This document shows, in pieces, positions 6,564 through 32,000 of a stretch of DNA of 32,000 nt. The notes under the pieces were generated by a model. That model saw only the letters and a program-made list of their open reading frames with translations. It had not been told where the DNA came from and ran no database searches. The position numbers were made by a program, and so were the translations under genes. The stretch is from Verrucomicrobiota bacterium (GTDB taxonomy: Bacteria; Verrucomicrobiota; Verrucomicrobiia; Chthoniobacterales; UBA6821): positions 1 through 32,000 of the forward strand of contig WBXG01000009.1 in assembly GCA_008932965.1 (NCBI GenBank), given 5' to 3'. The first letter of the stretch is position 1; each line of letters opens with the position of its first letter.

Positions 6564-6640
6564 TAGCAACATTTCTTAAAGAGGGCTGTTGTTGAAACCT
6601 GATGAAGTGGATGATAGGATCGTTCATTTTAGATTACTTC

Positions 6641-8523: not shown

Positions 8524-10677
8524 GTGACTAAAAAGAAATCTTCCTCATCGCCTAAGCCACTAGCCTCACTCAAAGGAAAAAGTCCCTCATTAAAAAAGCA
8601 AGTGGTGAAAAAAAGTAGTGTTTCAAAAGTTATCACAAAAAAAATGATTCCTATAAAGAAGCCTCTATCTAAGAAGCTGCTACCGGCTCTCAAAAAACCA
8701 GTGAGCCCTAAAAAAGTCTCTCCAGCTTCTAAAAAGAAGATATCTCCAAAGAAACCCTTGCCACGATCCACTAAGGTTACAAAGAAACCAACCTTACAAG
8801 TGGTCAAAAAAGTTTCCAAAAAAAAATTACCTCCCCTAAAAGTCTCGTCTAAAAAAAGTGCATTAAAGCCATTCGTGGTACATCAGGAAGAAAAAAAGGG
8901 TCATTCTTCAGTCGAAAAAAAGCCCACTGATAAAACAGTTAAAGAAAAGAAACCGTTAGAAGAGGCTTTTACTCATTCAAACTCTGAAGTAAAAGCTCTT
9001 TTTATTAAGAGCGATGCTGCTCCTAAAAACCCTGCAGAAGCTCAAAAGCTGCTACAAGAAAAAGTCCGTGAGCTCCTGAAATTAGCAAAGGAGCAAGGAT
9101 ATATAACCTTTGAAGATCTCGAGGAACATCTGCCAACGGGAATGAATAATCCCGAAACAGTTGAATCCATTTTGACCCAACTTCGCATTGTAGAAATAGA
9201 TATTATTGATTCCTCTGATGTTGATCGTGTCAAAGAGATCAAGAAATCGGATGATGATGATGACAAGGACGACAAGGATGAAAAATCGGATGGGCGTCTT
9301 GATATTTTAGATGATCCTGTACGCATGTATCTAAAACAGATGGGGCAAGTTCCCCTTCTTACACGTGAGCAAGAAGTAGAAATTTCCAAACGTATTGAAC
9401 AGGCACAAACAGAAATGCAAAATGTTCTCTACCAATTCGGCTTTGTGGCCCATGCACATATTGATTTAGCACAACGGCTACTGGATGCTCGAGAGCGCTT
9501 TGATCGCGTGATTCTCGATAAAAAAATTGAAAGTCGCGAACGCTATTTAAAAACACTACCTCGTTTGTGTCAACAGCTCCAACGCCTTGCTTCTGAGACC
9601 TCGCTCATTTACAGCAAAAAAATTAATGCCAAAAAAGATCCACCTCCTAAAGACATCAAGGAAATGGAAAAACAGATTGAGGAAATTAACAAACTTTACC
9701 CTCGGTTTTATTTCAAACAGAAGATCACTGAAGATTTTGTTACCGTAGCGGACGACCACATTCGTTTGTTGCAGGAATTGCGTCTAGAGCATGAAAACCA
9801 TATTAAAACACCGAGCCCCACATCGCGTCGTTTGATTCAGGCTATTGTTGCTCAACGAGAGGAACATCATCATCGCAACTGGATGTCAACGGAGCACTTT
9901 GAACTGCAGCATCGAGATCTTAAGAAACATTTTCGTTCTGCCTTGCGTGCTAAGACAGAAATGGTCGAAGCAAACCTTCGTCTTGTTATTTCTATTGCAA
10001 AAAAATATACAAACAGAGGTCTTTCATTCCTTGATTTGATTCAAGAAGGAAACATGGGGCTCATGAAGGCTGTAGAAAAATTCGAGTACCGTCGCGGGTA
10101 TAAATTTTCTACCTATGCAACATGGTGGATTCGTCAAGCGATTACTCGTTCTATTGCAGATCAGGCACGTACTATTCGTATTCCTGTGCATATGATTGAA
10201 ACGATTAATAAATTGATACGAGTGCAAAAGCAGCTTGTTCAAGAATATGGTCGTGAGCCAACCCCTGAAGAAATTGCAGATGAAATCCAGCTTCCTGTAG
10301 AGCGTGTTCGAGCTGTTCTTAAAATGGCCCAACAGCCTATCTCACTGCAGGCACCTGTTGGTGATAGTGATGATACAAGTTTTGGTGATTTCATTGAGGA
10401 TAAATCAGCAGAGAACCCTGCTGATATGGCAGCAATTGTACTACTCAAGGATAAAATTAAAGATGTTCTAGATTCATTAACAGAGCGTGAGCGCCAAGTA
10501 TTAGAACAGCGTTTTGGTCTCGTTGATGGATACTCACGAACGTTAGAAGAAGTTGGAAAACAATTTAAGGTGACGCGTGAACGTATTCGACAGATAGAAG
10601 CAAAGGCTCTTCGCAAAATGCGCCATCCAACACGCCTTCGCCAACTCGAAGGTTTCCTGGAGCCGAAAGACGTTTAA
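8524..10677 (+). CDS. rpoD: Primary RNA polymerase sigma factor (sigma-70) with a ~150-codon Lys-rich N-terminal extension
   Basis: Region 2 reads [39 protein letters not shown]. Regions 3 and 4 read [14 protein letters not shown]...[28 protein letters not shown]. It sits immediately downstream of dnaG, the classical dnaG-rpoD arrangement. The start is a GTG. Confidence 0.9.
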
Positions 10678-10813
10678 CTCGGATATTTCATACTGATTGT
10701 GATGAGAAGATTGCTAAGGCTGATGGATCATGCTTTAGAATAACATTCTGGCTCGGGATGTATGTAGACTATGACCAGCATCTCAATGCTTGCCTGCGTT
10801 GACTCGCTTGCTC
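10677..10813 (+). mobile_element. MITE-like element copy M3 (3'-truncated), abutting M4
   Basis: It starts actcggatatttcatactgat on the rpoD TAA. The internal part aligns with M9 (gatggat..tttaga...tatgta...gcctgcgttgactcgcttgctc). It ends at TA 10814-10815, where M4 begins. Confidence 0.75.
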
Positions 10814-10815
10814 TA

Positions 10816-11075
10816 ACCCGCTTATTTCATACCGATTCTGCTGCAGCTTGCGAACACCTGATGGATACTGCGTCAGCTTCGAATTGCTCCTCGGGCAGTA
10901 TGAAACATACAGCCGTCGTCGCAATCCATCTCCTTCGTTGACTCGCTCGCTCCCGCTCGTCTCGCCCCTTTTAGTGCTGCCTAAAGGCAAGTCTCCACCG
11001 CGGTCTCCCGACCGCCGGTGGTGCCCCATCTGCCTTTGTGGCCTCATTGTTACGATCGGTATGAAATATCCAGAC
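10816..11075 (+). mobile_element. MITE-like element copy M4 (260 bp long variant with extra GC-rich module)
   Basis: Left end acccgcttatttcataccgattctgctgcagcttgcgaacacctgatggat. Right end ttacgatcggtatgaaatatccagac followed by TA. It contains the palindromes ACCGCGGT and accgccggtggt. Confidence 0.9.
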
Positions 11076-11162
11076 TAAATTGTTTCACTGAGGTAAGAGC
11101 CAAAGCCAGACAATTGCGATTGATAATTGCACTTAATCTTACAATGAGGTAATAATGACCAA

Positions 11163-13781
11163 ATGTATTTTTCAACTGAGATTAGAAATTATTTTTTTGG
11201 AATCTGTAACAAAAAATGTTTCTTCATTAGGTTTCTAGCGCTTCTTTTTCTTCCCTTTTGTTTATTAAGTTCTCTTAGGTCAGAAAACTCCGGTGATCCT
11301 GCTCAAGAATTTCTTATTGCCTACCAAAACTTTCAGCAGGCAGAGCGTCTTGAGCGTGCTGGAAAACAGAGTGAAGCCATTACGAAATATCAATATTCAG
11401 AAGGTATCCTCAAGGCTCTAAGCACTAATAATCCCGACTGGCAACAGCCTGTTGTTGATTATCGGTTGCATAAAGTAAGGGATAGTCTTGCACGTCTCAA
11501 CGCTACTGTGCACCAAACAACCTCGGACCATGATGAGTCCTTTGAAAAAACCCCTTTCCAAGAGGGGCCTGCCAATAACTACAAGCCCTCCGGCAAGAGT
11601 ATTTCTGACACTAAAGAAGAACAGAACTTAAAGGAAGGCCCTAGTATCTCCATTACCCCTCCTTCAACAAAAAAAAATCTTCCTAATCCTCAAATTGCTC
11701 AACTTCAACAACAGCTTCAAAAATCAGAATTAGAGCTCAAAAAAGTGCTGCAAAATCTCCATGATAAAACCATTGAACTTGATCACTCTAAGGTTGTTAT
11801 TATCGACATGAAGTCTCAGCTAGAGAAAACAGAACGGCAAGTTTCCGATTTAAAGACTGATCTTTCAAAAGCAAATCTACGTGGAATGCAGCGCGAAGAG
11901 GCACTACAGCAATCTGTAAGAACATTAGAAAGCAAATTAGATGCTCTTACAGCGGAGCAAGAGATTGTTTTAGAGGAAAACAAACAATTGCAAGATCACT
12001 TAAATCAAGCAGAGGCTTCGCTTACTGCAGCAATGGGTGCAAGGCAACATTTAGAGGATTTGCAATTAGAGGTGAACAAAGAAAAAAATAATGCTGCTTT
12101 GCTGCACCAGAAACTTCTTATCTCTCAGAGTGAGTATAAAGCAACCAGTGAGCTGAACAGTACGCTTAAAAAACAACTTTTAGAAGCTAATGCATCACTG
12201 ACTCAATCTGAAAAACAAGCAAAGGAAGCAAGTGCTTTGCGTATCCAGCTCGATAACCTTCGTGCTGATGATGCCTCTTTACAAGCACAGATTAGTGCAA
12301 TGAATAAGGATCAACAGGAAAATTCTAATCACCTGAAGGAGGTTGCTCAAACAGCACAATGCGAGTACCAGGTGTTAGAAACTAAAAAAATAGAAATTGA
12401 AAAAAAACTCTCTGAGGCAAATGAAAAAATAAAAAAACTAGAGAATAATTTACTGCATCAAGATGCAATGGAGGAAGAGATCGCTCACTATAAAAAAGAA
12501 CTCCAGGAGAGTTCCCTGAAATTAATAGATCAAGAAAAGAAAATTACTGAATTAGAGAAAGCGAAGCCAGAAAATGATCAAATTTTGAACGCAAAAGAAA
12601 AAGAACTGGCCTTTGAGCGTCTTAATTCTGAAAAGCTCCTCAAAGATCTTGCTACTGCAACTCAGAAAATATCAGTTCTGCAGGAAGAGGTGCACCTCAA
12701 GGATGATCATTATAGCGAGCTCAAAAAACAATTGGATAGTAAAAGTGAAGAGCTCTTAGCGATTCAGAAAAAAGAAGATCCTTATCAGATAGACGAGAAT
12801 GCTATTGTTGAAAATCAATTACTCAAAGGCATTGTTATTCGTGCATTGAAAGCAGAAGCAAAACGACAGCAAATCAAAAAACTTATCACCGATGACCTCC
12901 AAAAACTTAAAGTGAATTCTGTGACCCTATCCAATGAGCTAAAAAGATTAGCAAAACCTATGAAGCTGACTCCCGATGAAAAAGCTCTATTCAAAGATGT
13001 TCCTACGCTACCCACTTCTTCGGTAACTGAAGAAGAAGAGAATGATGATTTCTTAATGCTCGCAGCAGTTGCTACTAAAAAAGAAGACCATTCGAATTTA
13101 AAAGAAGAGTCAGCTCACTCACAGAATTCTCCTTCAGCGACTTCTAATATCACTCAAGAAGATAAAAGTGCTGATCACAGTTCTAATAATGTTGGTCCTG
13201 TAAATGGAAAAAATAATGCTGAAACTTCACAAAAACATCGTGAATTAATTGCTGCTGCGAAAGAAGAGTTTGAGCATCACAACTATTTTGAAGCAGAAAA
13301 AAAATTCCAGGATGCAATCACAATCTCCCCTGATGACTACTTAACACTTTCTAATTTAGGTGTGGTTCAATTTCAACTTGGTAAAATGGCTGAGGCTGAA
13401 TCTGTACTAAAAAAGGCTGTAGCATTAGATCATAAAAAATCTTTTGCACTCACGACGCTTGGAATTGTGGAATATCGTCAAGAAAAAATGAGTGAGGCAG
13501 AGAAGGATTTAAGGGAAGCTATCGCGATTAATGATCAAGATTTTACAGCGCATAATTACTTGGGAATTGTACTCGCAGCATCGGGTAAGGGAAAAGCTGG
13601 TGAAAGTGAAATCATGAAGGCTTTGGAGATTAATCCACAATATGCTGATGCTCATTTTAACTTAGCTGTGATTTATGCAACGAGTATGCCTCCAGCAAAA
13701 GAGATAGCAAAATCCCACTATCAAAAAGCGATTGGATTGGGCGCTCCCACAGATGTATCTCTTGAAAAGATACTAAATTAA
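11163..13781 (+). CDS. Secreted or membrane-anchored coiled-coil protein with C-terminal TPR repeats (872 aa)
   Basis: Hydrophobic N-terminus (FIRFLALLFLPFCLLSSL). A long Q/E/K/L-rich heptad-like central region. The C-terminal TPR-like repeats read YFEAEKKFQDAITISPDDYLTLSNLGVV..., ALEINPQYADAHFNLAVIY. Confidence 0.65.
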   Translation: MYFSTEIRNYFFGICNKKCFFIRFLALLFLPFCLLSSLRSENSGDPAQEFLIAYQNFQQAERLERAGKQSEAITKYQYSEGILKALSTNNPDWQQPVVDYRLHKVRDSLARLNATVHQTTSDHDESFEKTPFQEGPANNYKPSGKSISDTKEEQNLKEGPSISITPPSTKKNLPNPQIAQLQQQLQKSELELKKVLQNLHDKTIELDHSKVVIIDMKSQLEKTERQVSDLKTDLSKANLRGMQREEALQQSVRTLESKLDALTAEQEIVLEENKQLQDHLNQAEASLTAAMGARQHLEDLQLEVNKEKNNAALLHQKLLISQSEYKATSELNSTLKKQLLEANASLTQSEKQAKEASALRIQLDNLRADDASLQAQISAMNKDQQENSNHLKEVAQTAQCEYQVLETKKIEIEKKLSEANEKIKKLENNLLHQDAMEEEIAHYKKELQESSLKLIDQEKKITELEKAKPENDQILNAKEKELAFERLNSEKLLKDLATATQKISVLQEEVHLKDDHYSELKKQLDSKSEELLAIQKKEDPYQIDENAIVENQLLKGIVIRALKAEAKRQQIKKLITDDLQKLKVNSVTLSNELKRLAKPMKLTPDEKALFKDVPTLPTSSVTEEEENDDFLMLAAVATKKEDHSNLKEESAHSQNSPSATSNITQEDKSADHSSNNVGPVNGKNNAETSQKHRELIAAAKEEFEHHNYFEAEKKFQDAITISPDDYLTLSNLGVVQFQLGKMAEAESVLKKAVALDHKKSFALTTLGIVEYRQEKMSEAEKDLREAIAINDQDFTAHNYLGIVLAASGKGKAGESEIMKALEINPQYADAHFNLAVIYATSMPPAKEIAKSHYQKAIGLGAPTDVSLEKILN

Positions 13782-13920
13782 CCCGAATATTTCATACCGA
13801 CCTATTGCGAAGATGGGAAAATTAGACGGATACTGCGTTAGAGTCATATTTTGACTTAGGCGATGGGGACTCATATAGCTCGGCATCACAATACTTCTCC
13901 CACCGTATACGAATACGTTT
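13781..13920 (+). mobile_element. MITE-like element copy M5 (left end intact, right end decayed)
   Basis: acccgaatatttcataccgac starts on the TAA of the TPR gene. The internal ttagagtcatattttgacttaggcgatgg matches M13. The right boundary is approximate. Confidence 0.7.
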
Positions 13921-16288: not shown

Positions 16289-16463
16289 TGTGGATATTTC
16301 ATACCAATCACCTGCGGAGACCGAGAAGCTAGGTGGATAGTACGTTGATCTCGAAGTCTTCCTCGAGCAGTCTGTACACACAGCAATTATCAGACTTCAT
16401 CGCTCGCCTGGTCCCATCAGCCTTCGCGACCTCCTCGTCACGATCAGTATGAAATATCCGAGT
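16289..16463 (+). mobile_element. MITE-like element copy M6 (~175 bp)
   Basis: tgtggatatttcataccaatc...ccatcagccttcgcgacctcctcgtcacgatcagtatgaaatatccgagt followed by TA. It lies between the divergent lipoprotein and transporter genes. Confidence 0.9.
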
Positions 16464-16545
16464 TAAGAGGTTGAGGCTATAAGTTCCATATTTCTTTTAA
16501 AACTTTAAACTGTCATATCTCCAAAAATCTTTTCAGTATCAAGGA

Positions 16546-17808
16546 ATGAATACTGATCTCATCGTTATGATTCCTTTTGTCATTATGCTCCTAGCTGTAG
16601 CATTTATGCCCTTTGTACATAGCACTTGGTGGAACTTACATTTTAAAAAGGTTTCGTTCTTTTTAGCGGGTATCATTATTCTCTATTATCTCCTGGTACG
16701 ACATGATGTTCCACGGTTGTGTATTCTTTTGAGTGAGTATTTTAGTTTTATCGTTCTTATTGGATCACTTTTTTTGGTTACTGGGGGAATTTATTTACGT
16801 GTTCAGGGTGAAGCAACCCCACTGAGAAACACTATTTTTTTAATAGTAGGTTCCATCATGGCAGTTTTCATTGGAACCACAGGAGCCTCCATGCTTCTGA
16901 TTCGGCCTTGGATTCATAGTAACCGTTATCGCATTACTGCATTTCATATTATATTTTTCATTTTTATGATTAGCAATATTGGTGGATGTTTGAGTCCTAT
17001 TGGGGATCCCCCTCTCTTTTTAGGATATCTTCGTGGAGTCCCTTTTTTTTGGCTTTTTCAACATCTTTGGTTTGCTTGGCTGCTTTCCATGAGTTTACTT
17101 GCAGCCATTTTTTATTTTCTAGACAGAAAAAATTTTCTGAAAGCACCTCTCTCGGTTCGTACTTTTGAAACATATAACGAGGCTTGGACTTTTAAGGGTC
17201 TATTCAATCTTTTCTTTTTAGCAATAATTATTGGAGCGGTTTTTCTTCCTTCTCCATGGAGAGAAATAATGATGATTCTAGCTGCTTTGAGTTCTTATTT
17301 GTTAACTTCAAAAAATATTTTTGTAGCAAATAAATTTACATTTCATCCTATAGAAGAGGTTGCATGGCTTTTCTTTGGTATATTTGCCACAATGGTCCCT
17401 GTTCTTGATTACCTTGAAGAAAGAGTATCTCTCACTTCTTCTTATCCCGCGCTAAAACCCATCCATTTTTATTATTTAACAGGATTTCTTTCCACCTGCC
17501 TGGATAATGCACCTACCTACCTGGCATTGCTTCAACTCCATTTAGGAATGAATGGAATGAGTATAGAGAAAGTCAATGATGTCGCCTATGTTGCCATGAA
17601 CAATCCACAATTTCTTACTGCGATTGCTCTTGGAGCGGTTTTCTTTGGAGCAACTACCTACATTGGTAATGGTCCTAACTTTATGGTAAAAAGTATCGCG
17701 GAAGATGCAGAGATTCGTATGCCAAATTTTGTGCATTATATCTTGTGCTATTCGTTACCAATTTTAGCTCCTATCTTGTTTCTCATTGGATGGGTTTTTT
17801 TCCACTAA
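16546..17808 (+). CDS. Polytopic ion transporter (ArsB/NhaD/citrate-transporter superfamily, Na+/H+ antiporter-like)
   Basis: 420 aa, about 10-12 hydrophobic segments with a GDPP loop motif. The family call is tentative. The TAA stop is formed at the junction with repeat copy M7. Confidence 0.55.
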   Translation: MNTDLIVMIPFVIMLLAVAFMPFVHSTWWNLHFKKVSFFLAGIIILYYLLVRHDVPRLCILLSEYFSFIVLIGSLFLVTGGIYLRVQGEATPLRNTIFLIVGSIMAVFIGTTGASMLLIRPWIHSNRYRITAFHIIFFIFMISNIGGCLSPIGDPPLFLGYLRGVPFFWLFQHLWFAWLLSMSLLAAIFYFLDRKNFLKAPLSVRTFETYNEAWTFKGLFNLFFLAIIIGAVFLPSPWREIMMILAALSSYLLTSKNIFVANKFTFHPIEEVAWLFFGIFATMVPVLDYLEERVSLTSSYPALKPIHFYYLTGFLSTCLDNAPTYLALLQLHLGMNGMSIEKVNDVAYVAMNNPQFLTAIALGAVFFGATTYIGNGPNFMVKSIAEDAEIRMPNFVHYILCYSLPILAPILFLIGWVFFH

Positions 17809-17861
17809 CCCGGATATTTCATACTGATCGTGAGGAGGAGGCCGTGAAGGCTGATGGGCAA
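17808..17861 (-). repeat. MITE-family fragment M7 (right-end ~54 bp only, inverted orientation)
   Basis: acccggatatttcatactgatcgtgaggaggaggccgtgaaggctgatggg is the near-exact reverse complement of the M6 right end. It starts on the transporter TAA. Confidence 0.75.
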
Positions 17862-19677: not shown

Positions 19678-19752
19678 GCGCGGTTAGCTCAGCGGTAGAG
19701 CACTACACTGACACTGTAGGGGTCGGCAGTTCGAACCTGCCATCGCGCACCA
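19678..19752 (+). tRNA. tRNA-Val (anticodon GAC), CCA encoded
   Basis: Cloverleaf folded by hand. The acceptor GCGCGGT pairs with ATCGCGC. D arm is GCTC-AGCGGTA-GAGC. The anticodon stem CTACA/TGTAG carries loop CTGACAC (GAC at positions 34-36). T arm is GGCAG-TTCGAAC-CTGCC, with discriminator A and CCA. Confidence 0.9.
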
Positions 19753-19760
19753 TGAAGTTA

Positions 19761-19961
19761 GTGTATTTCACACCGATCTACTGCGGAGACCATGAAATCA
19801 CATGGATGCGGCGTTAGACTCCCATTGTGACTTGGGAAGTATGTACTTATACAGCCGTCGTCAAATTACGTGTCTGCGTTGACTCGCTCACTCCCGACCG
19901 CCGGCGGTGCCCCGTTAGCCTTCGCAGCTCCCTCCTTACGATCAGTATGAAATATCCGGGC
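19761..19961 (+). mobile_element. MITE-like element copy M9 (201 bp), 8 nt downstream of tRNA-Val and overlapping the dnaE 3' end
   Basis: The left end has a small deletion (gtgtatttcacaccgatc). The right end ccttacgatcagtatgaaatatccgggc is intact. It is flanked by TA at 19759-60 and 19962-63. It contains the perfect 12-bp palindrome ACCGCCGGCGGT at 19897-19908. Confidence 0.9.
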
Positions 19962-22900
19962 TAGTGTACAAGAATTTTAGAAGTGCTTTTTTAAGAGAGT
20001 TTTCGTCATCCACACGAAAATGAGCTCCTGTTTTTAATGGAACAATACTTCCGTCAGGATGGACTATTTCTAAAATCAAAGAACGAGTACCATGGTGTTG
20101 TTTTAGAATTGTTCTAATACTTGTGAGGTTTTCTAAATTTAATTTTGTGCGATCGAGTTTGATTTTTAATGGTTTTTTCGAAAGTAGAGGTTGGAGCAGT
20201 TTGAAGTCTGAACCGATGGCTCTTACCATGCCCTCCCGTGGAATAATTTTTAAGACACACGAGACTACTGTTCCTGGCTTTAGAAGCTTTTCGTGTTCGG
20301 TGAAAGCTTCATTCCAGACGGTCATTTCAATGTTGCCGCTATAATCCTCTAGGGCAATAATTCCAAATGCTTTCCCTTCCTTCTTTGTGAACTTTTTTTC
20401 TACCGTAGAAATGATGCCTGCTACTTTTTCTTTGAGTGGTTCTGTTGATTCTTGAAGATGAATAAGTGGAGTCAATTTTTCCTTCTCTAATGTCCCTTCA
20501 TAATCCTCTAGAGGATGACCGGTGACATAGAACCCAAGAAGTTCTTTTTCGTATGAAAGCTGAATAGCTCTAGGCCAAGGTATGGCTTGGGGTTTGGAAT
20601 GAGTGGTGTTTTGTGTTTGCGATGGAGCGAAGGATTCTAAGCTGTCAAAAAGTGAAACCTGTCCCGAGGCTCGATCTCGTTGAATTGAGGCAGCTGAGGC
20701 AATAGCAGGTTCAATAGCTTCAAAGAGTTCAGCTCGATGACGTCCGTCAAAATCAAAAGCACCAGCTTTGACTAAACTCTCAAGGATCTTTTTGTTCACA
20801 CTGCGTGTATCGAGTCGCGAGCAAAAATCCTCGAGTGATTTAAAAGGACCATGTGCTTCACGTTCTGCAATAGCTGAGGCCATGGCAGCAGCACCTACAT
20901 TCTTGACAGCAGCAAGGCCGAATCGAATGCCACGTGCTTTTTTCTCCTCTTCAGGCAAAAAGGTGAGTCCGCTCTTATTGATGTTCGGTGGAAGAATTGT
21001 AATTTCCATGCGAGTGCAGTCGGCCACAAAAGTCGTAATCTTCTCAGTATTGTTGACAGCATTACTGAGGAGTCCAGCCATGAATTCAATAGTATAATTT
21101 GCCTTGAGATAGGCTGTCTGATAGGAAATCAGCGCATAGGCAGCACTGTGGCTTTTGTTAAAACCATATTCCGCAAATTTTTCTAAGAAATCAAAAATGG
21201 CATTTGCCTGCTTCTCTGGAATGTTATTGAGCCGCTTACATCCCTCAACAAAAGTGAGGCGTTCTTTGGCCATCTTTTCTTTATCTTTTTTACCCATGGC
21301 ACGACGTAAGAGGTCTGCCTGGCCAAGGGTGTAACCAGCAAGAATATTAGCCGCTTGTTGCACCTGCTCTTGATACACAATGATTCCGTAAGTTTCGGAG
21401 CAAATTGTTTCTAGTAGCGGTTGAGCATAGCTCATTTTTTTTGTCCCTTTTTTTCGTTCAATATACTCATCAATGAACTGCATTGGGCCTGGACGATAGA
21501 GTGCAATTAGTGCAATGAGGTCTTCAAAACGATCTATTTGAAGACGTTTGGCGACACTCGTCATTCCCCCTGACTCGAGCTGGAAGAGGCCAACGGATTC
21601 GCCTCGATTAAGAAGGGCGAAGGTTACTGGATCATCTATGGGAATATTTTCTAAAGAAAATGTAGGATTCTTTTGATGAATGAGTTTTACAGCATCACTC
21701 ATCACAGTAAGTGTCGTAAGTCCCAAAAAATCCATTTTAAGAAGACCTAAGTCGGTAAGGGGAGCCATGGAATATTGGCTTACGATTCCACCATCATTAC
21801 CTCGAGTCAGCGGAATATAGTCAGAAAGATCCCGGTCGGCGATTACGATTCCAGCTGCATGAACGCCACTATTGCGCGTGATCCCTTCTAAAATAGTTGC
21901 GTAGTTCCAGAGCTGGCTTGTCGATTGTTCTTGTTCTACTGCTATTTTTAAATCTGAATTTTTATCTATTGCACCTGGTTCATGTTTCCCTTTTTTATCA
22001 ACACCATTGAGAGTAATGTTAAGTTCATTAGGGATCATTTTTGCAATACGATCTGCGTCGCTGTAGCTCCACCCTAAAACACGTCCTACATCACGAACAA
22101 CGCTCTTAGCACCCATTGTGCCAAAAGTGATGATTTGGGAAACAGCACGCTCCCCATACTTATTGCGAACATAGTCGATAACTTCACCTCGACGGTTCTG
22201 GCAAAAATCAATATCGATATCGGGAGGGCTAATACGATCCGGGTTGAGGAAACGTTCAAAAATCAATCCATATCGTAGTGGGTCAAGGTCTGTAATCCCA
22301 AGAACATAGGCGACTAGGGATCCAGCTGCAGATCCACGTCCAGGGCCAACAGGAATGCCATGTGTTTTTGCATAATGAATAAAATCCCAAACAATGAGGA
22401 AGTAACTCACAAAGCCAGTTTTTTCTAGAATAGAGAGTTCATAGTCAAGTCGCTGGCGCAGCTCTCCATCCGACTGTATACGATCCCCATAGCGTCGCTG
22501 CATCCCCTCTTCAGAAAGCTCACGTAGAAAGCCTTCTCGAGTTTTTCCTTCAGGTGGTTTGTAATCTGGGTACTTAGAATGTCCAAATTCGATGGTCAGG
22601 TTACAACGCTCAGCAATAGTGAGGGTGTTGCTAATTGCATCAGGACAATCGGCAAAGAGAGCTGCCATTTCCTCACCTGATTTAAAGTAGAGTTCCGGAA
22701 CATAGTGCATCCTTTTTTCATCAGCTACCATAGCCCCTGTACCAATGCAAATCATGACATCGTGGGCTTCATGATGGGCGCGTTCGAGAAAGTGGACATC
22801 ATTAGTGGCGACGAGTCCTAATTCAAATTTTTTGGCAAGTTCGATTAACAAGGGACGATTGTGACGTTGTGCTTCAATCCCATGATCGCTTAATTCAATA

Positions 22901-23427
22901 AAGAAATTTTCTTTTCCAAAAATAGTACGATATTCTTGAGTAAGGGTTGATGCTTTTTCGAAATCTCCGCTAGTTAAAGCAACATTAATTTCTCCTTTTA
23001 AGCATCCACTGAGCGCAATGAGGCCCTCGGCATGCTGGGTAAGGAGTTTTTTATCAACGCGTGGTTTATAGTAGAAACCTTCTAGGTGTGCCGCTGTGCT
23101 CAGCTTAATAAGATTGTGATAGCCTGTATCATTCATGGCTAAGAGAGTCAAATGATAGGCACTCTCTTTTCCATGATTGCCACCCTTTTTTTCATACATC
23201 GATCCTGGAGCTACATAAATTTCGCACCCGATGATTGGCTTGATTCCGGCTTCAGTGGCTTTTTGATAAAATTCAATAGCTCCAAAAAGATTTCCGTGAT
23301 CGGTGAGTGCCACAGCAGGCATATTGCATGCATGAGCCTTAGCAATAAGATCATCAATACGAATGGCCCCATCCAGCATGGAATACTCGCTATGAAGATG
23401 CAGATGAACAAAGGGAACCGTAGACAT
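19942..23427 (-). CDS. dnaE: DNA polymerase III alpha subunit
   Basis: 1161 aa with the PHP domain FVHLHLHSEYSMLDGA, GFVSYFLIVWDFI, PDIDIDF, and the finger/OB regions. The last 6 codons (SPDISY) and the TGA stop lie inside the right terminal repeat of copy M9. Confidence 0.92.
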   Translation of the reverse strand: MSTVPFVHLHLHSEYSMLDGAIRIDDLIAKAHACNMPAVALTDHGNLFGAIEFYQKATEAGIKPIIGCEIYVAPGSMYEKKGGNHGKESAYHLTLLAMNDTGYHNLIKLSTAAHLEGFYYKPRVDKKLLTQHAEGLIALSGCLKGEINVALTSGDFEKASTLTQEYRTIFGKENFFIELSDHGIEAQRHNRPLLIELAKKFELGLVATNDVHFLERAHHEAHDVMICIGTGAMVADEKRMHYVPELYFKSGEEMAALFADCPDAISNTLTIAERCNLTIEFGHSKYPDYKPPEGKTREGFLRELSEEGMQRRYGDRIQSDGELRQRLDYELSILEKTGFVSYFLIVWDFIHYAKTHGIPVGPGRGSAAGSLVAYVLGITDLDPLRYGLIFERFLNPDRISPPDIDIDFCQNRRGEVIDYVRNKYGERAVSQIITFGTMGAKSVVRDVGRVLGWSYSDADRIAKMIPNELNITLNGVDKKGKHEPGAIDKNSDLKIAVEQEQSTSQLWNYATILEGITRNSGVHAAGIVIADRDLSDYIPLTRGNDGGIVSQYSMAPLTDLGLLKMDFLGLTTLTVMSDAVKLIHQKNPTFSLENIPIDDPVTFALLNRGESVGLFQLESGGMTSVAKRLQIDRFEDLIALIALYRPGPMQFIDEYIERKKGTKKMSYAQPLLETICSETYGIIVYQEQVQQAANILAGYTLGQADLLRRAMGKKDKEKMAKERLTFVEGCKRLNNIPEKQANAIFDFLEKFAEYGFNKSHSAAYALISYQTAYLKANYTIEFMAGLLSNAVNNTEKITTFVADCTRMEITILPPNINKSGLTFLPEEEKKARGIRFGLAAVKNVGAAAMASAIAEREAHGPFKSLEDFCSRLDTRSVNKKILESLVKAGAFDFDGRHRAELFEAIEPAIASAASIQRDRASGQVSLFDSLESFAPSQTQNTTHSKPQAIPWPRAIQLSYEKELLGFYVTGHPLEDYEGTLEKEKLTPLIHLQESTEPLKEKVAGIISTVEKKFTKKEGKAFGIIALEDYSGNIEMTVWNEAFTEHEKLLKPGTVVSCVLKIIPREGMVRAIGSDFKLLQPLLSKKPLKIKLDRTKLNLENLTSIRTILKQHHGTRSLILEIVHPDGSIVPLKTGAHFRVDDENSLKKALLKFLYTSPDISY

Positions 23428-23521: not shown

Positions 23522-24370
23522 TCAACTTGTAATACGACATCCTACTTCCCGCAAACCCTCTAGAGTAAGGGTAGTATTGATATGGTCAAAAAGTTGAGTT
23601 CCTTGCGCAACAAGTTTGGCATCTGTCCCAGTTGCGATCACACATGGTCTTTTATTTTTGAAATTTTCTTTTGTTACCCGTGTTACAACCTCTTGAACTA
23701 GACCACGAGCTCCTAAGAGTAATCCAGAGTGAATAGCCGTGAGGGTGCTTTTTCCTACAGCACGACGAATGGGTGAGGGAAGAGATACTGGCAATAGGGC
23801 TGTCTTTTCATGCAATGCATCAGCTCCTGTTTTGAGTCCTGGAGCAATGATTCCACCTAAGTAGGCACCTTGAGCATTAATGATATCAAAAGTAATAGCT
23901 GTCCCAAAGTCGACCACGATGGCTGGAGTACCATAGAGAGCTGTAGTGGCCACCACATTGGCAAGACGGTCTGCCCCAATAGAAGCGGGATCTGGGTAGT
24001 TTATAGGAATGCCAAGTTGGCTTGTTGCATCAATAGAGAGAAACGGAATACGTTGAGATTTAAAGAACGATGCCAGAAGATGTGTTGCTTTTGGAACAAC
24101 AGAGGAAGCGATAACACGTTCTACTTTCCAATCTCCTAGAGCCAAAGCAAGTGTTGTAGGACTTAACAGCGATGTCGCAATTCGGCGAATAGTTATCAAA
24201 CGCTTTGAAGTTGAGAGAGCCAATTTTGAAGTGGAATTACTAGCATCAATCAAAAGCCATTTTCCATGCTGAAGAGGAGAGGGGTTAATCTTTACTGCCT
24301 CCCCGTCACAATCAGTATGAAATATCCAGGCTAGCTCCTTTTTTTTGCTAGCTCTTTTTTTATCATTCAC
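23522..24370 (-). CDS. coaX: Type III pantothenate kinase
   Basis: LLIDASNSTSKLAL at the usual N-terminal position, VVDFGTAITFD, and GTDA near the C-terminus. The start is ambiguous. GTG 24370 adds a 38-residue extension that reads through repeat fragment M11. TTG 24253 gives the canonical MIDASNS N-terminus. Confidence 0.8.
   Translation of the reverse strand: MNDKKRASKKKELAWIFHTDCDGEAVKINPSPLQHGKWLLIDASNSTSKLALSTSKRLITIRRIATSLLSPTTLALALGDWKVERVIASSVVPKATHLLASFFKSQRIPFLSIDATSQLGIPINYPDPASIGADRLANVVATTALYGTPAIVVDFGTAITFDIINAQGAYLGGIIAPGLKTGADALHEKTALLPVSLPSPIRRAVGKSTLTAIHSGLLLGARGLVQEVVTRVTKENFKNKRPCVIATGTDAKLVAQGTQLFDHINTTLTLEGLREVGCRITS
24298..24331 (+). repeat. MITE-family fragment M11 (solo right end, 34 bp)
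   Basis: cctccccgtcacaatcagtatgaaatatccaggc followed by TA. It lies within the upstream-most part of the coaX ORF. Confidence 0.75.
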
Positions 24371-27700: not shown

Positions 27701-27789
27701 TGACACTTTTCATTCTTCTTCTGCTTGCGCTCAATGCCGAAGGATGCAAAATTAATACTTTCTAAAAATTCAGGTATGAAATATCCGGG
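27701..27789 (+). repeat. MITE-family copy M12 (short, degenerate left half, intact right tip)
   Basis: TTAA-tgacacttttcattcttcttctgcttgcgctcaatgccgaaggatgc...caggtatgaaatatccggg-TTAA. The left half aligns only loosely with the consensus. Confidence 0.5.
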
Positions 27790-27913
27790 TTAACCCACTA
27801 ATAGTGAAAAAAATCTTCATTCATCTATATCTGGTGTTTTTAAATTAAAAATTTTAAATATTTTATTTTCTCACATCGCGAAAAATAAAAGCTTTGAAAA
27901 TGAGTCACCACTC

Positions 27914-30778
27914 TTGAACCCTTCCTCGTTAACTAACATTACATCATTCCTTCCAATGAATAGCCCACTCCCTCTACACGCTCTTGATCCACTCTCTGAC
28001 AAAAAATTTTCTGTTCGCAAACGCGATGGTCGAACTGAAATTTTTAATGAAGAACGTATTCGTCTTGCTATTGAAGGAGCTTTTAAAGCAGAGCGTCATC
28101 TTACCCCTGATGCTCCTCTCTCCATAGATGACAAAGAGGCTATCTCAAACATTAATAATGCTGTTGTAGAGCGTTTGTTAGCACGAGCTGTACAAGGTGA
28201 AGAGCTCGAGATCGAATTAATTCAAGATACCGTAGAAGTGGCATTAATGAAGCATGGCCACCATGATATAGCTCGACGTTACATTATTTACCGTGAAGAT
28301 CGTCGCAAAGCGCGTGCTTTGAATGCTCCTTCTGGAGATACAGCATCACTACCCCAAGTAAGCTTGCCAGATGGTCGCCGCAAGACTCTCGAGCCACAAC
28401 GCATTAGACGCACCATCATTCGTGCCTGTCGTGGATATGAGGATCGTTGTCAAATGCGTGAAATGGCCGATGAAGTTCTCAAAAATCTTTACGATGGAGT
28501 TCGCTTAGATGAGATTGAAAAAGCGATGATCTTTTCGGCCAAAACACGCATTGAGAAAGATCCTGCTTATGGCTACGTAACAGCACGTCTTCTCCTGGAG
28601 TCGATCTATCGCGAGGTGATTCCAGGCTTTAAGCATTACCATGATCTTGCTCAGGCCCATAAGGTTCATTTTGAAGCCTATTTAGAACATGGTGTTCGTG
28701 AAAAGCGCCTTTCTCCTGTGTTACTCGATTTTGACTTAAAGTGCCTTGCTGCTGCACTCGCACCAGAGCGTGATTTGCAATTTAACTATATGGGAATTCA
28801 AACAATTTATGATCGTTATCTTATCCATGTTGGAGGGCATCGTATCGAGACTCCTCAATATTTTTGGATGCGTGTTGCCATGGGCTTAGCTATTAACGAA
28901 GGAGAAAAAAAGAATGAACGTGCCTTGGAATTCTATCATCTTCTCTCTTCCTTTCTTTTTACTTCATCAACACCGACCTTGTTTAATGCAGGGACCTTAC
29001 ATCCTCAGCTCAGTTCGTGTTATCTCACTACAGTGATGGATGATCTCGATCATATTTTTAAATGTGTTGCAGATGATGCTAAACTTTCCAAATGGGCCGG
29101 TGGTCTAGGCAATGACTGGACTAATGTTCGTGCAAGTGGCTCCTTAATCAAAGGAACCAATGGGGAGAGCCAGGGGGTCATTCCTTTCCTGAAAGTTGCC
29201 AACGATACAGCAGTAGCCGTCAATCAAGGTGGTAAGCGCAAAGGAGCTATGTGTGCTTACCTCGAAACATGGCACCTTGATGTAGAAGATTTTCTTGAAT
29301 TGCGTAAAAATGTCGGCGATGAGCGTCGTCGGACCCATGATATGAATACCGCTAACTGGATTCCTGATCTTTTCATGAAAAGAGTGCAGCAAAATGCTTC
29401 ATGGACACTCTTTAGCCCAAGTGATGTGACCGATCTTCACGACCTTTATGGTGCCGCTTTTGAAGCACGTTATGAAGCCTATGAAGCCATGGTTGATAAT
29501 GGAAGGATGACTCATTTTAAACGTGTTGAAGCGCTTGCTTTATGGCGTAAAATGTTATCGATGGTTTTTGAAACTGGCCACCCATGGATTACCTTTAAAG
29601 ATCCTTCGAACGTACGCTCTCCTCAAGATCACGTTGGTGTTGTTCATAGTTCCAATCTTTGTACAGAAATATTACTTAATACTTCAGAAGAAGAGACAGC
29701 TGTCTGTAACCTAGGATCCATCAACTTGCCTCTTCATACCAATAAAGAGGGCCTTGATCTTCCTCTTCTAGATAAAACAATCACAACAGCAATGCGCATG
29801 CTCGATAATGTGATTGACATCAATTATTACCCTACCAAAGAGGCTAAAAATGCTAATATGCGTCATCGACCAGTAGGTCTAGGTATTATGGGCTTCCAAG
29901 ATGCGCTCTACAAAATGAAAATGAGCTATGCAAGTCAGGAAGCTGTTGAGTTTGCCGATCATAGCATGGAAGCGATCTCCTATTACGCTATTTTAGCATC
30001 TTCAAAACTTGCTATGCAAAGAGGTTCCTACGAAACTTTTTCTGGTTCGAAATGGGATCGAGGACTTCTTCCACTTGACACCATCGACTTTCTTGAAAAA
30101 GAACGTGGCTTGCCCATTAAGATGGATCGCTCTTCCGCCCTGAATTGGGATTTAGTACGTAAATCGATTCGTCAACATGGAATGCGTAATAGTAATTGCA
30201 TGGCCATTGCTCCTACCGCAACGATTTCTAATATTACGGGTATTTCCCAATCTATTGAACCAACCTTTAAAAACCTTTTTGCTAAAGGGAATCTTAGCGG
30301 TGATTTTACGGTAATTAACGAATATCTTGTGGAGGATCTAAAAAAACTAGACCTTTGGGATGCTTCTATGATTGAGGAATTGAAATATATGGATGGATCG
30401 ATTCAAGAAATTGAGCGCATTCCTCGAGCTCTTCGTGAAATTTATCGGACTGCTTTTGAAATTGAGCCCTACTGGTATGTAGAATGTGCAAGTCGTCGTC
30501 AAAAGTGGATCGATATGGGGCAGTCATTGAACCTTTATATTGCAGCTCCTAACGGTCGAAAATTACACGAAATGTATATGCATGCCTGGGAGAGTGGTTT
30601 GAAAACAACCTATTATTTGAGATCTGTTGCCGCAAACACGATTGAAAAAACAACACTACAGTCACGTCCCCGTTGGGCAAGTGAAGGGAAAGCAGAGGAG
30701 GATGCTCCTGTTGAAGAAATCAAAGCTTGTAGTTTGGAGGCAAGGATGAGGGGCGAGGAATGTGAAGCCTGCCAATAG
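27914..30778 (+). CDS. nrdA: Class I ribonucleotide reductase alpha subunit with N-terminal ATP-cone
   Basis: ATP-cone [20 protein letters not shown], catalytic SNLCTEI, NLGSINL, and a C-terminal redox Cys pair CEAC. The start may be ATG 27956 rather than TTG 27914. No nrdB is adjacent. Confidence 0.9.
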
Positions 30779-30818
30779 AAACTTTTTATCTCATTAATGT
30801 TATACTGAGATCATCCCT

Positions 30819-30998
30819 GCCCGGATATTTCATACCAATCATCTGTGGAGACCTGAAAGCTAGGGTCAATGCTACGTTAGATTCACATTTTGACTTGGGC
30901 GGTAGGAACTCTACTAACCAGCGTCAAAATGCTCGCCTGCTATACCCCATTACCCCTTCGCTGCCTCCTTGTCACACGATGAGCTCAAGTATCTAGTC
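30819..30998 (+). mobile_element. MITE-like element copy M13 (left end intact, right end decayed)
   Basis: gcccggatatttcataccaatc ... cttcgctgcctccttgtcacacgatgagctcaagtatctagtc followed by TA. It ends 21 nt before the aroD ATG. Confidence 0.75.
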
Positions 30999-31018
30999 TA
31001 AGCTCCTATCGGCATTCC

Positions 31019-32000
31019 ATGAGTACTCCTTTTATCGTTGGCACATTGCATTCTAAGGAATGTCTTAGAATGCTAACACATCACTTTCATACTGATTCTG
31101 TTACGACTTGTAAAAATATGATCGATAGAGCATCAGGCTTAACCCGGATATTTCATACTGATCTACTAAGGAAGCCGGGAAGCCAGATGGATGCTGTGTT
31201 GAGCTCGAAGTCTTCCTCGGGCAGTATGTACTCATACAGCCGTCGTCAGACTTCATCACTCGCCTTGCCCCATCAGCCGTCACGGCCTCCTCGTCACGAT
31301 CAGTATGAAATATCCGGGTTAAACTTTTCCTCGAAAGGTATGAAAAATACAGCCATCCTCGAAGACCACAGCCTTCCTTCTCTTCATCAGCCTTCGCAGC
31401 CTCCTCGTCACAATCAATGTGAAATATTCGGGCTCAAGAAAAGTCCTAGAGAACTCTTTGATGGAATTGATCTCTTAGAAGCTCGTCTGGATTCATTACC
31501 TCTTTCTCTATTGCCCTCATTATGGCCCCTTCCAGTGATTGCCACAGCACGTCATCCTGCTGAAGGTGGCGTTTCTCATCATACCACATTACAACGGCAA
31601 CATCTGCTAGAAGAGTCTCTTTCGTGGGCTTGTGCCATCGATATCGAATTACGTTCTATGAAGCACATGAAATCATTAATAGAAAATGCAAAAAAAGAAA
31701 AACGTTTCATCATCTCCTCCTTTCATGATTTCAAGACTGTTCCCTCTTTGTCTCGTTTGAATCAGATGGCCTTGCGTGCTTACGATGCAGGGGCTGATCT
31801 TTTCAAAGTAGCTTGTACGATTCATCATGAAGAGGAGCTGATACGCTTACTTGCTTTTCAACTCATGATGCCAACTCATTTTCCAATCGCATGCATGGGG
31901 ATGGGGGAGGGAGGGAAGCTCTCACGAATACTTCTACCACTCTGCGGATCTTGGCTTAGCTACGGGTGGCTTTATAAACCTCAACTCCATGGACAATGGT
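31019..32000 (+). CDS. aroD: Type I 3-dehydroquinate dehydratase, 3'-truncated by the window edge, carrying ~350 nt of in-frame repeat-element sequence
   Basis: It is not in the ORF track because it has no stop in the window. My translation from ATG 31019 is open to 32000. It reads MSTPFIVGTLHSKECLRMLTHH, then about 117 repeat-derived codons, then KKSPRELFDGIDLLEARLDSLP...VIATARHPAEGG...AIDIEL...FIISSFHDFKTVP...GADLFKVAC...IACMGMGEGGKLSRIL. These are AroD motifs and include the catalytic His (SFHDF) and Schiff-base Lys (FKVA) contexts. Confidence 0.75.
   Translation, partial: MSTPFIVGTLHSKECLRMLTHHFHTDSVTTCKNMIDRASGLTRIFHTDLLRKPGSQMDAVLSSKSSSGSMYSYSRRQTSSLALPHQPSRPPRHDQYEISGLNFSSKGMKNTAILEDHSLPSLHQPSQPPRHNQCEIFGLKKSPRELFDGIDLLEARLDSLPLSLLPSLWPLPVIATARHPAEGGVSHHTTLQRQHLLEESLSWACAIDIELRSMKHMKSLIENAKKEKRFIISSFHDFKTVPSLSRLNQMALRAYDAGADLFKVACTIHHEEELIRLLAFQLMMPTHFPIACMGMGEGGKLSRILLPLCGSWLSYGWLYKPQLHGQW
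31084..31139 (+). repeat. MITE-family fragment M14 (internally deleted or degenerate) inside aroD
   Basis: ctttcatactgattctgttacgacttg resembles the left end (tttcataccgattctgctgcggcttg). The remainder is only weakly like a right end. Confidence 0.45.
31142..31319 (+). mobile_element. MITE-like element copy M15 (178 bp, best-preserved copy, 22-bp perfect TIR) inside aroD
   Basis: acccggatatttcatactgatc ... gatcagtatgaaatatccgggt are perfect 22-bp inverted repeats. It is flanked by TA (TTAA) at 31140-41 and 31320-21. Length plus one TA is 180 bp, or 60 codons. Confidence 0.95.
31323..31433 (+). repeat. MITE-family copy M16 (5'-truncated, right ~110 bp) inside aroD, directly after M15
   Basis: acttttcctcgaaaggtatgaaaaatacagcc...catcagccttcgcagcctcctcgtcacaatcaatgtgaaatattcgggc aligns with the M15 interior and right end. 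Confidence 0.8.

Follow-up and report, generated by a model that had tools for sequence, protein, structure and literature searches.

The aroD gene at the end of the window, the whole 32,000-nt stretch of DNA analysed here, from an uncultured freshwater member of the Verrucomicrobiota, is interrupted by a nested pair of MITEs, a young 176-bp element within an older 176-bp element, both exactly in frame. This is probably a working type I 3-dehydroquinate dehydratase gene, which carries the two copies as an in-frame passenger. The frame from the ATG at 31019 is free of stop codons up to base 32000, where the window ends, and the last 13 codons lie past this point; protein P0127 (KAB2644568.1), 340 aa in full length, equals the window AroD over 327 aa. 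The original prediction described the same open frame, and the peptide it quoted is exact in our translation. The repeat DNA separates a conserved N-terminus from a conserved core. The N-terminal part (31019–31072, plus strand; ATG and 18 codons, MSTPFIVGTLHSKECLRM) comprises strand β1 and most of helix α1 according to the orthologue alignment and the AF2 model, and is matched in all orthologues by P(F/L)IVGTLHSxxCLK. The core (31433–32000, plus strand) resumes with LKKSPRELF, contains strand β2 onward with all catalytic motifs, and runs to the window end. Pfam DHquinase_I (PF01487) matches residues 149–326 (E 6.8e-30; 105.3 bits versus a gathering cut-off of 22.2). The earlier statement that the N-terminus, the second strand and the catalytic motifs are intact is borne out. 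With the insert spliced out, the Pfam match still starts at profile position 22 and leaves the 18 N-terminal residues uncovered; because Pfam stops short, the role of these residues as β1 rests on the orthologue alignment and AF2.

The upstream neighbour of aroD is nrdA (27914–30778, plus strand), encoding the large subunit of class I ribonucleotide reductase with the Pfam domains ATP-cone, Ribonuc_red_lgN and Ribonuc_red_lgC. The gene order nrdA-aroD-grx-queA is kept in the related loci L001-L004 and L188-L192. A third copy of this MITE family, now degenerate, lies in the nrdA-aroD spacer (30820–30993, plus strand; repeat families D9 and D11) and ends 25 nt before the aroD ATG. This copy is 66% identical to the inner element over 174 nt in blastn and has an exact match to the family's end core at 30823. 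A scan of 30600–31600 for promoters and terminators found none.

The insert in aroD measures 360 bp or 120 codons (31073–31432, one target duplication counted), instead of the predicted length of about 350 nt or 117 residues at 31084–31433. All its parts are given on the plus strand. The left target-site duplication of the outer element (31073–31076) reads CTAA, decayed from TTAA as seen in the DNA alignment with inserted and empty orthologues, and its first three bases form a Leu codon. The left arm of the outer element (31077–31142, repeat family D3) ends with the TTAA at 31139–31142 that was the target of the second insertion. The complete inner element follows at 31143–31318, and its right TTAA duplication is read directly at 31319–31322. 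The right arm of the outer element (31323–31432; repeat families D2 and D4, blastn) ends in a decayed terminus, ...GTGAAATATTCGGG, and is followed by the likewise decayed right duplication CTCA (31433–31436), which by alignment encodes the Leu that resumes AroD. The two outer arms sum to exactly 176 bp. The three tandem pieces originally proposed, M14, M15 and M16, are hence to be redrawn: M14 and M16 together form a single 176-bp element, split by M15 at an internal TTAA. A tandem array was rejected, as TRF finds none in 31019–31500 and the pieces are nested.

The inner element is bounded by perfect 25-nt inverted repeats, TTAA included (31139–31163 and 31298–31322, 100% complementary; inverted repeat I20), and is 92–93% identical to copies on other contigs. 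Its RNA is predicted to fold into a hairpin of -85 kcal/mol (z -8.4) with a 24-bp perfect stem. The closest relatives of the outer element are about 72% identical to it (L174:434-601 and window 4431-4595). It resembles another subfamily, and was rejected as a mere decayed copy of the inner type. An intein or self-splicing intron was also considered; Pfam at E up to 1 gives DHquinase_I only, and at gathering thresholds Rfam matches a tRNA as the sole RNA in the window, with no intron and no known RNA family.

Repeat families connect 31073–31437 with about 11 further copies in the window, and the 13-nt end core GGATATTTCATAC occurs there 18 times versus 1.06 expected, with none of 100 shuffles reaching 18. 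This is in line with the original view that dispersed repeat elements interrupt aroD in frame. Our family set, collected from the window plus related contigs of 1.37 Mb in total, contains 127 copies (122 unique), and the family termini are found in more than 100 metagenome contigs among the matches listed. The copies have inverted ends of about 24 nt (CCCGGATATTTCATACTGATC...) and a modal length of 176 bp (39 copies), with a second length class near 272 bp. The target duplication is a 4-bp direct repeat, YTAR. Among the flank pairs of the 127 copies, TTAA/TTAA is the commonest (37), followed by CTAG (11), CTAA/CTAA (6) and TTAG/TTAG (6). Because the non-palindromic 4-mers CTAA and TTAG are directly duplicated, a TA duplication of the IS630/mariner-like type is ruled out; the predicted total of 180 bp for M15 with its duplication holds, whereas the TA assigned to it gives way to the 4-bp YTAR. 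The element is a MITE, being small and without a transposase gene, with terminal inverted repeats, a target duplication of fixed length, dispersed copies and empty sites. We found no literature on this MITE family for Verrucomicrobia, Spartobacteria or Chthoniobacterales.

The host frame is kept because 176+4 equals 180 bp, YTA is a Leu codon, and one phase of the element is stop-free in both orientations. Both length classes, 176 and 272, are of the form 3n-4, and length plus 4 is divisible by three in 67 of the 122 unique copies. Phase 0 is open in 45–55% of these 67 copies per orientation versus 14–15% for interior-shuffled copies, and therefore two elements would both be open by chance in about 2% of cases. 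The two remaining phases are open in hardly any copy, and in none of the 176-bp class. The stop-free phase in both orientations is found across several subfamilies, and the peptides that the elements can encode match no Pfam family. A simulation of decay from a mixed-subfamily consensus gave a figure of 4%, which is indicative only because this consensus itself has a stop. We suggest tentatively, and regard as somewhat doubtful, that the 3n-4 length, the YTAR target and the two-way stop-free phase are an element-level adaptation of the family to persistence within genes. If true, the 'protein-coding palindromes', earlier described as peculiar to Rickettsia, would have originated a second time and independently, here with a transposition geometry that, unlike that of the Rickettsia elements, is readable, and with element turnover at a fixed permissive site via gene conversion or re-insertion.

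About 20 of the 122 sampled copies lie within long ORFs. Pfam domains flank in-frame copies on either side in GcvP and FtsX/MacB, and likewise in an aldose 1-epimerase and DR2241/Fer4_23, which a separate peptide search added. The copy in LptF/LptG lies between the two LptF_LptG matches, and that in PyrF is situated just past strand 1. SBP_bac_5 and HAD proteins contain in-frame copies with a Pfam match on one side only. The long host genes emerged from an exhaustive peptide search, while a word-indexed search gave short spurious ORFs only. These in-frame copies in unrelated conserved genes, with the ORF preserved in the sequence, point to a behaviour like that of the Rickettsia palindromic elements (RPEs), the comparison made in the original prediction, which is apt. 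RPEs are short (100–150 bp) palindromic repeats that occur between genes and in frame within housekeeping genes (Ogata et al. 2000 Science 290:347; PMC10969869, PMC1779305). Like them, the family described here consists of dispersed short palindromic repeats (176 bp), both intergenic and in unrelated housekeeping genes, inserted in frame in host genes under selection; the extra peptide is likewise probably read through, judging from sequence, and predicted to be compatible with the fold. The two families differ in host, freshwater Chthoniobacterales (Verrucomicrobiota) here and obligate intracellular alpha-proteobacteria there. Moreover, the present family has MITE hallmarks (TIRs of about 24 nt, 4-bp YTAR) that explain frame preservation arithmetically, is open in both orientations, and has one element nested in another within a gene. 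We liken it to RPEs by behaviour, as a verrucomicrobial family that appears to work like them and is not filed as a member; a sequence relationship to RPE families is not expected.

In-frame fusions of MITEs or repeats are documented in several bacteria (PMC10969869, PMC3184786), including QMITE of Coxiella (PMC5896051), intragenic ERIC/YPAL, pneumococcal BOX/RUP/SPRITE and cyanobacterial MITEs (PMC3184786, PMC10969869). Like other bacterial MITEs, the present family consists of non-autonomous elements with TIRs that lie mostly between genes and occasionally form in-frame fusions, internal or 3'-terminal; strong RNA hairpins and spurious small ORFs called on intergenic copies are also common to both. 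In those MITEs, internal read-through in conserved enzymes is sporadic, in contrast to the share of copies in long ORFs found here; a modal length that together with the target duplication is a multiple of three also sets the present family apart.

Orthologous loci display the insertion site in empty and occupied states, providing the uninterrupted alleles that an orthologue alignment had been proposed to reveal. Nothing is inserted at the aroD site of L006, L007, L008 and about 14 further MAGs of Chthoniobacterales/Spartobacteria, and most aroD orthologues are without any insert. L001 and L002-L004 carry one element, at the same TTAA, and the window carries two. The aroD core has a dN/dS of 0.18 between the window and L001 (dS 0.72) and of 0.12 between L001 and L002, values from which the core is judged to be under purifying selection. 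The 18 N-terminal codons have a dN/dS of 0.11 (window versus L001), and element-to-element values are 0.4–0.57. The double insert occurs in seven distinct 340-aa strain variants, with the frame kept in all of them. It is fixed: every assembly found carries it, and these assemblies come from several samples.

The predicted structure agrees with a tolerated insertion. In the AF2 model of P0001, the barrel has pLDDT above 90 and strand β1 about 88 (strand 5–10 and helix 13–25, pLDDT about 88), and residues 47–136 fall below 50. In the AF2 model of the uninserted orthologue P0004, the insertion site lies after L48, at the end of helix 42–50. The prediction is thus of a preserved TIM barrel, from which the insert loops out in disordered form where helix α1 ends. 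Foldseek returned the AroD structures 3s42, 1qfe and 3js3 as top PDB matches of the model (E 9e-16, about 1e-15), and the model superposes on these solved type I 3-dehydroquinate dehydratases, which share the DHquinase_I domain and are without the 120-residue predicted-disordered insertion at the end of helix α1. The Schiff-base Lys (FKVA) and the general-base His (SFHDF) of this enzyme type are both kept. They are K263 and H236, which we take to be equivalent to Salmonella K170 and H143, and together with the substrate-binding Arg and Glu residues R156, R178, E182 and R303 they form invariant columns in alignments of 18 and 76 sequences.

We propose that the target of the first element was a Leu-Lys codon pair, TTA-AAG, at the C-terminus of helix α1, and that the second later entered a TTAA within the first. 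With a Leu codon (YTA) plus a purine as target, each insertion would add 60 codons, and the stop-free phase in either orientation would keep the host frame. The ribosome would translate through all 120 extra codons, and the resulting peptide would project as a disordered loop from the side of the (β/α)8 barrel that faces away from the active site, and the enzyme would stay active. Of the three options originally offered, it is this tolerance of a surface insertion that is favoured by the uninserted and single-insert orthologues, the purifying selection, the conserved N-terminal strand, the in-frame strain variants and the intact predicted barrel. The inner hairpin could hinder ribosomes or be a target of RNase III, effects that have been reported for hairpins of other MITEs, and aroD expression may therefore be reduced.

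The same hairpin suits the idea of a very recent pseudogene, in which the first insertion was tolerated and the second, with its strong hairpin and a total of 120 residues, inactivated aroD too recently for stops or frameshifts to accumulate. The inner copy indeed looks young, given its perfect termini and target duplication and its high identity to copies elsewhere. In addition, four distinct DNA alleles from other members of the P0001 cluster differ at only 9–17 positions in 981 nt; the power to detect decay is therefore low, and any selection signal since the second insertion comes from few substitutions. Even so, none of these alleles has an indel or a stop. Among the seven variants, 9 of the 120 insert residues are polymorphic versus 2 of the 202 core residues (Fisher p 0.003), and the DNA differences are mostly synonymous in the core (4 synonymous-only codons, 2 non-synonymous) and mostly non-synonymous in the insert. 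Together with the fixation of the double insert, this makes a dead gene unlikely. We consider it very improbable that translation instead starts within or after the insert, leaving the upstream part as an untranslated leader. Gene callers do disagree on the product (340, 271 or 233 aa), JGI calls on the same contigs placing the start at M70 (271 aa) or M108 (233 aa), both within the insert, and Pfam coverage begins only at residue 149. However, the protein sequence encoded by the 18 N-terminal codons is conserved in all orthologues, inserted or not, and forms β1 in both AF2 models, and a (β/α)8 barrel without β1, as in the 233-aa form, is unlikely to fold. An open 360-bp frame would then be needless, yet it is kept in every allele and in the single-insert relatives, and the ATG that the element terminus contains (GTATGAAAT) lies in a different frame at this locus.

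Co-option of the 120 element-derived residues for a function of their own, as a linker, interaction or regulatory segment, would fit the persistence of elements at this site across lineages with dS of about 0.7, the element dN/dS below 1 and the enrichment of open frames over shuffles. We give it little credence, as the insert is predicted to be disordered, changes faster among strains than any other part of the protein, encodes peptides of no Pfam family and is missing from most orthologues. Furthermore, the central 60 nt of the L001 and L002 elements are only 50% identical although their aroD cores are 96% identical, and no specific insert sequence is therefore conserved. Since the window comes from a MAG contig and dispersed repeats classically cause chimeric joins, a repeat-induced misassembly that placed MITE copies in aroD was also weighed. 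It is scarcely credible, because NCBI, ENA and JGI assemblies of different samples independently contain the same double insert and show different alleles of it, and single-insert versions occupy the identical site in two other lineages.

On the preferred reading, a working gene with two passenger elements, the elements would have been mobilised in trans by a transposase. Pfam identified no cognate transposase among the window ORFs, and no full-length IS sharing the family termini (CCCGGATATTTCATAC) was present in the window, the related loci or the metagenome matches listed. Within the 1.37 Mb, neither end pairs 600–2600 bp apart with matched target duplications and no intervening element ends nor a recurrent inward ORF beside unpaired element ends were seen. 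ISs assemble poorly in MAGs. According to ISfinder descriptions, the IS5 group generates a 4-bp duplication at YTAR and has termini starting with GG. The present family shares this target and its duplication (TTAA, CTAG, CTAA, TTAG), whereas its termini start with CCCGG. IS1380/piggyBac-like elements have CC... ends and 4-bp TTAA-type targets, and are an alternative lead for the parent IS.

RPE-like in-frame MITEs are already known, and a new kind of biological system is not revealed here. The present family carries the theme of in-frame 'selfish DNA in protein genes' over from intracellular Rickettsia to Verrucomicrobiota that live free in freshwater, and offers a simple mechanistic reason for frame survival, a YTAR target read as Leu and an increment of 180 bp. 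The aroD locus, where first 60 and then 120 residues were added at the end of helix α1, would also serve as a natural experiment on the tolerance of a TIM-barrel enzyme for disordered sequence. There are consequences for annotation as well, among them the disagreement of callers on aroD. Dozens of bogus 'hypothetical proteins' are annotated on intergenic copies, and some apparent gene fusions, for example Vut_1+FtsX, may be read-through artefacts.

The aroD frame starting at ATG 31019 contains no stop as far as base 32000, and its re-translation agreed exactly with the original prediction. No ATG, GTG or TTG occurs in this frame between the preceding stop and ATG 31019. The 18-residue N-terminus MSTPFIVGTLHSKECLRM is separated from LKKSPRELFDGIDLLEARLD by 120 codons without AroD counterpart, corresponding to an insert of 360 bp (31073-31432), that is, two units of 176+4. 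The Pfam DHquinase_I profile (positions 23-220) matches residues 149-326 of the product with an E value of 6.8e-30. Removal of the insert as an intein or intron found no support in the Pfam search of the product or the Rfam search.

The two elements of the insert are nested, and not arranged in tandem as had been proposed from the sequence. The inner element is complete, with TTAA, 176 bp and TTAA at 31139-31322 and with 25-nt ends that show 100% complementarity to each other (inverted repeat I20). The apparent further pieces are the two arms of a single outer element. Its left arm (31077-31142, 66 nt) has at its end the TTAA that was hit by the second insertion, and its right arm comprises 110 nt (31323-31432); together they sum to exactly 176 bp. 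The outer element is flanked by CTAA (31073-31076) and CTCA (31433-31436), both decayed copies of TTAA, and resembles a different subfamily from the inner one (related locus L174:434-601; window 4431-4595). Because the inner copy shows 92-93% identity to copies on other contigs and the outer one ~72% at best to anything found, an old aroD insertion was struck later by a young one.

The window AroD matches P0127 (KAB2644568.1, "MAG: Verrucomicrobia bacterium") over 327 aa without a difference. Its relatives are Chthoniobacterales/Spartobacteria MAGs, and the order nrdA-aroD-grx-queA is conserved among them. In about 17 related MAGs the insert is absent, and strand 1 to strand 2 spans 38-41 residues. 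Exactly one 180-bp unit occupies the same aroD site in two lineages, represented by loci L001/L005 and L002-L004, with the junctions ...AAG ATG TTA T/CCCGG...CCGGG/TTA AAG AAA.... The reconstructed empty site reads ...CLKM-L-KK(N/S)PRELF, equal in length to the uninserted CLKRLAKRPQEIF. The L001 element (L001:724-907) uses the same TTAA as that of L002. The aroD core DNA (strand 2 onward) of these two loci is 96% identical, whereas their elements share only 76% and the central 60 nt only 50%; the outer element of the window is a third variant. This difference points either to repeated insertion at the site or to overwriting of an ancestral element through gene conversion by copies from elsewhere. 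As the AroD proteins P0013 and P0008 carry unrelated extra segments of about 24-50 residues on both sides of strand beta-2 (columns 209-294 of protein alignment A1), the region around strand 2 tolerates length variation independently of the MITE.

The inserted DNA is part of a family of dispersed repeats. Repeat search and blastn linked 31073-31437 to window copies at about 4417-4596, 6436-6565, 10674-10766, 10814-11078, 13778-13904, 16292-16466, 17806-17858, 19764-19963, 24294-24333, 27774-27793 and 30820-30993. The window contains 18 occurrences of the 13-nt end core GGATATTTCATAC, versus 1.06 expected, and a metagenome scan matched the terminus CCCGGATATTTCATACYGAT in >100 contigs among the matches listed. 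In the window and all fetched loci (1.37 Mb) we found 127 paired-end copies, 122 of them unique, with a modal length of 176 bp (39 copies) and a second class near 272 bp. The four bases on either side form YTAR direct repeats, with flank pairs TTAA/TTAA (37 copies), CTAG/CTAG (11), CTAA/CTAA (6) and TTAG/TTAG (6). Because the non-palindromic pairs CTAA/CTAA and TTAG/TTAG are directly repeated, the duplication is 4 bp, replacing the TA duplication originally suggested. The family is a canonical MITE with YTAR duplication. YTAR is the target of the IS5 group, to which the termini show no obvious fit. A cognate transposase was not found among the window ORFs, or among end pairs and ORFs near unpaired ends in the 1.37 Mb of related loci. 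The MITE RNA folds into a long hairpin (-85 kcal/mol, z -8.4) and matched no Rfam family at gathering thresholds; this strong hairpin may reduce expression when present in aroD mRNA.

Both size classes, together with the duplication, are divisible by three (176+4 = 180; 272+4 = 276), as is length+4 in 67 of the 122 unique copies. In the phase that reads YTA as a Leu codon (phase 0), the termini are translated as L-(T/A/S)-R-I-F-H-T-D ... (Q/E)-Y-E-I-S-G-L in either orientation. The remaining two phases meet a stop, either the TGA in CATACTGAT or the TAA where the duplication is of TTAA type, and are hardly ever open; in the 176-bp class they never are. Among frame-compatible copies, phase 0 is open in 45% on one strand, in 55% on the other and on both strands in 25%, versus 14%, 15% and 1.5% after interior shuffling, percentages that are descriptive and not a test because the copies share ancestry. 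The aroD frame probably owes its maintenance to element geometry plus selection against disruptive insertions.

Other genes carry in-frame copies as well, and approximately 20 of the 122 copies lie in phase 0 within an ORF that has 40 or more open codons to either side of the copy. That genuine genes are among these hosts is confirmed by Pfam. Domains flank the MITE on both sides in GcvP (glycine dehydrogenase, with 465 codons on one side and 536 on the other), FtsX/MacB and a phosphodiesterase/sulfotransferase protein, and on one side only in an SBP_bac_5 protein and a HAD hydrolase. In LptF/LptG the copy lies between the two LptF_LptG matches, and in PyrF (OMP decarboxylase) just past strand 1. 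The gcvP orthologues of two genomes are interrupted in frame at an identical position, by inserts that with the TSD measure 213 and 282 bp (L155:1894-2102, L168:4336-4613); the 213-bp insert looks as if it derived from the long variant by loss of 69 bp in frame. Exhaustive phmmer with the 61-aa element peptide against 1.84 billion representatives found 112 proteins, most of them short spurious ORFs, with ~15 long hosts, among them a split aldose 1-epimerase and DR2241/Fer4_23. Open copies also bridge apparent fusions of Vut_1 with FtsX (P0212, 576 aa) and of two LptF_LptG units (L102:2515-5076), which may not be true fusions but neighbouring genes connected because the element between them is read through.

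The AlphaFold2 model of the AroD protein P0001 with 76 homologues (pTM 0.71) contains strand 1 at residues 5-10 (pLDDT about 88), helix 1 at 13-25, a segment with pLDDT < 50 at 47-136, and a complete barrel from residue 150 on (pLDDT 90-98). The best Foldseek PDB matches are AroD of Salmonella, Clostridioides and Staphylococcus, with E about 1e-15. In the model of the uninserted orthologue P0004 (pLDDT 90.5), strand 1 (34-39) is followed by a helix (42-50), a short helix (52-56) and strand 2 (61-65). The insertion point maps just behind L48, where helix 1 ends at its C-terminal side. Going by the general architecture of TIM barrels, an alpha-to-beta connection such as this one is found on the opposite face from the catalytic C-terminal ends of the strands.

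Most probably, the enzyme is functional and tolerates the insert as a passenger that is read through. The columns of the catalytic motifs EARLD, ATARHPAEGG, SFHDF, FKVA and MGMG..G..SR, including H236 and K263, are invariant in the 18- and 76-sequence alignments. By the Nei-Gojobori method, core dN/dS is 0.18 for the window versus L001 (dS 0.72), 0.16 versus L002, 0.12 between L001 and L002, and about 0.21 versus the uninserted L006; that of the 18 N-terminal codons is 0.11. Both elements are in frame in all seven distinct full-length 340-aa variants (NCBI, ENA and JGI assemblies), in which polymorphic residues number 2/18 in the N-terminus, 9/120 in the insert and 2/202 in the core (insert vs core, Fisher p 0.003). 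Four distinct aroD DNA alleles contain no indel or stop; their variable codons are nine non-synonymous and two synonymous-only in the insert, and two and four, respectively, in the core (p 0.11 on its own). By these ratios and counts, the insert drifts, whereas core and frame are maintained.

An unlikely alternative is that aroD became a pseudogene only with the second insertion; these same variants and alleles speak against it. Translation initiating inside the insert, as in the JGI calls, is very improbable, given that the N-terminal strand is conserved and selected and the frame across the insert is maintained. Equally improbable is co-option, as the insert is predicted to be disordered and changes fast, and the element centres are non-conserved. 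Misassembly is hardly credible, the elements being present in independent assemblies.

In-frame repeat insertion as such is already known: it is established for Rickettsia RPEs and has sporadic reports for Coxiella QMITEs, ERIC, and pneumococcal and cyanobacterial repeats (PMC10969869, PMC3184786, PMC5896051, PMC1779305). The verrucomicrobial family is like the RPEs in behaviour, although relatedness to them would not be expected. No description of it was found in literature on Verrucomicrobia, Spartobacteria or Chthoniobacterales. Mildly novel are the arithmetic frame explanation, the frames open in either orientation, the nesting of one element in another and the element turnover at a single site.

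The MITE also touches gene boundaries and annotation. A third copy (30820-30993) occupies the nrdA-aroD spacer just 5' of the aroD start codon. As the called aroD start of P0007 and P0010 (MKY(A/P)GL...; L007:3416-3508) is an ATG within the terminus GTATGAAATATCC, the MITE may supply or mislead start codons. ORF 4369-6438 (689 aa, no Pfam match) opens with an in-frame copy (LSRIYHADFAAACES...DQYDISGL, 4369-4608), and its true start may lie 3' of this copy. The TAA/TAG of a YTAR duplication bordering a MITE forms the stop of rpoD, a TPR protein, a CitMHS_2 transporter and ORF 4369-6438 (10675-10677, 13779-13781, 17806-17808 and 6436-6438). Since every YTAR holds a stop triplet, stop codons after a pyrimidine look like natural targets at which the gene retains its stop. 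The end of dnaE (DNA polymerase III alpha; 19942-23427, minus strand) is a 3'-terminal MITE fusion, with the last six residues and stop (...LYT-SPDISY*) provided by the terminus CTAGCCCGGATATTTCATACTGA (19942-19964).

A tRNA gene (19678-19749, Rfam 66.5 bits) lies 12 nt from a 200-bp copy (19761-19964). In relatives, at a place that lies past the window end, the aroD 3' end directly adjoins an opposite-strand tRNA-Glu(CTC) gene (L188:2518-2592, L001:1507-1581, L006:4808-4880, L008:4644-4718), and in L188 and L001 the two overlap by a few bases; several AroD orthologues are predicted to continue into this tRNA gene, and their ending ...ARTGVEPVRQP looks like translated tRNA. The aroD calls differ (P0122-P0133), with 340 aa in PGAP and ENA, 233 aa (M108) or 271 aa (M70) in JGI, and 246 versus 280 aa in the single-insert lineage. 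Dozens of "hypothetical proteins" of 45-107 aa annotated in related MAGs (locus tags K9M81_*, QE493_*, DVB29_*; P0136-P0192) are the open frame of intergenic copies, and P0024 and P0064 are ORFs across two such copies.
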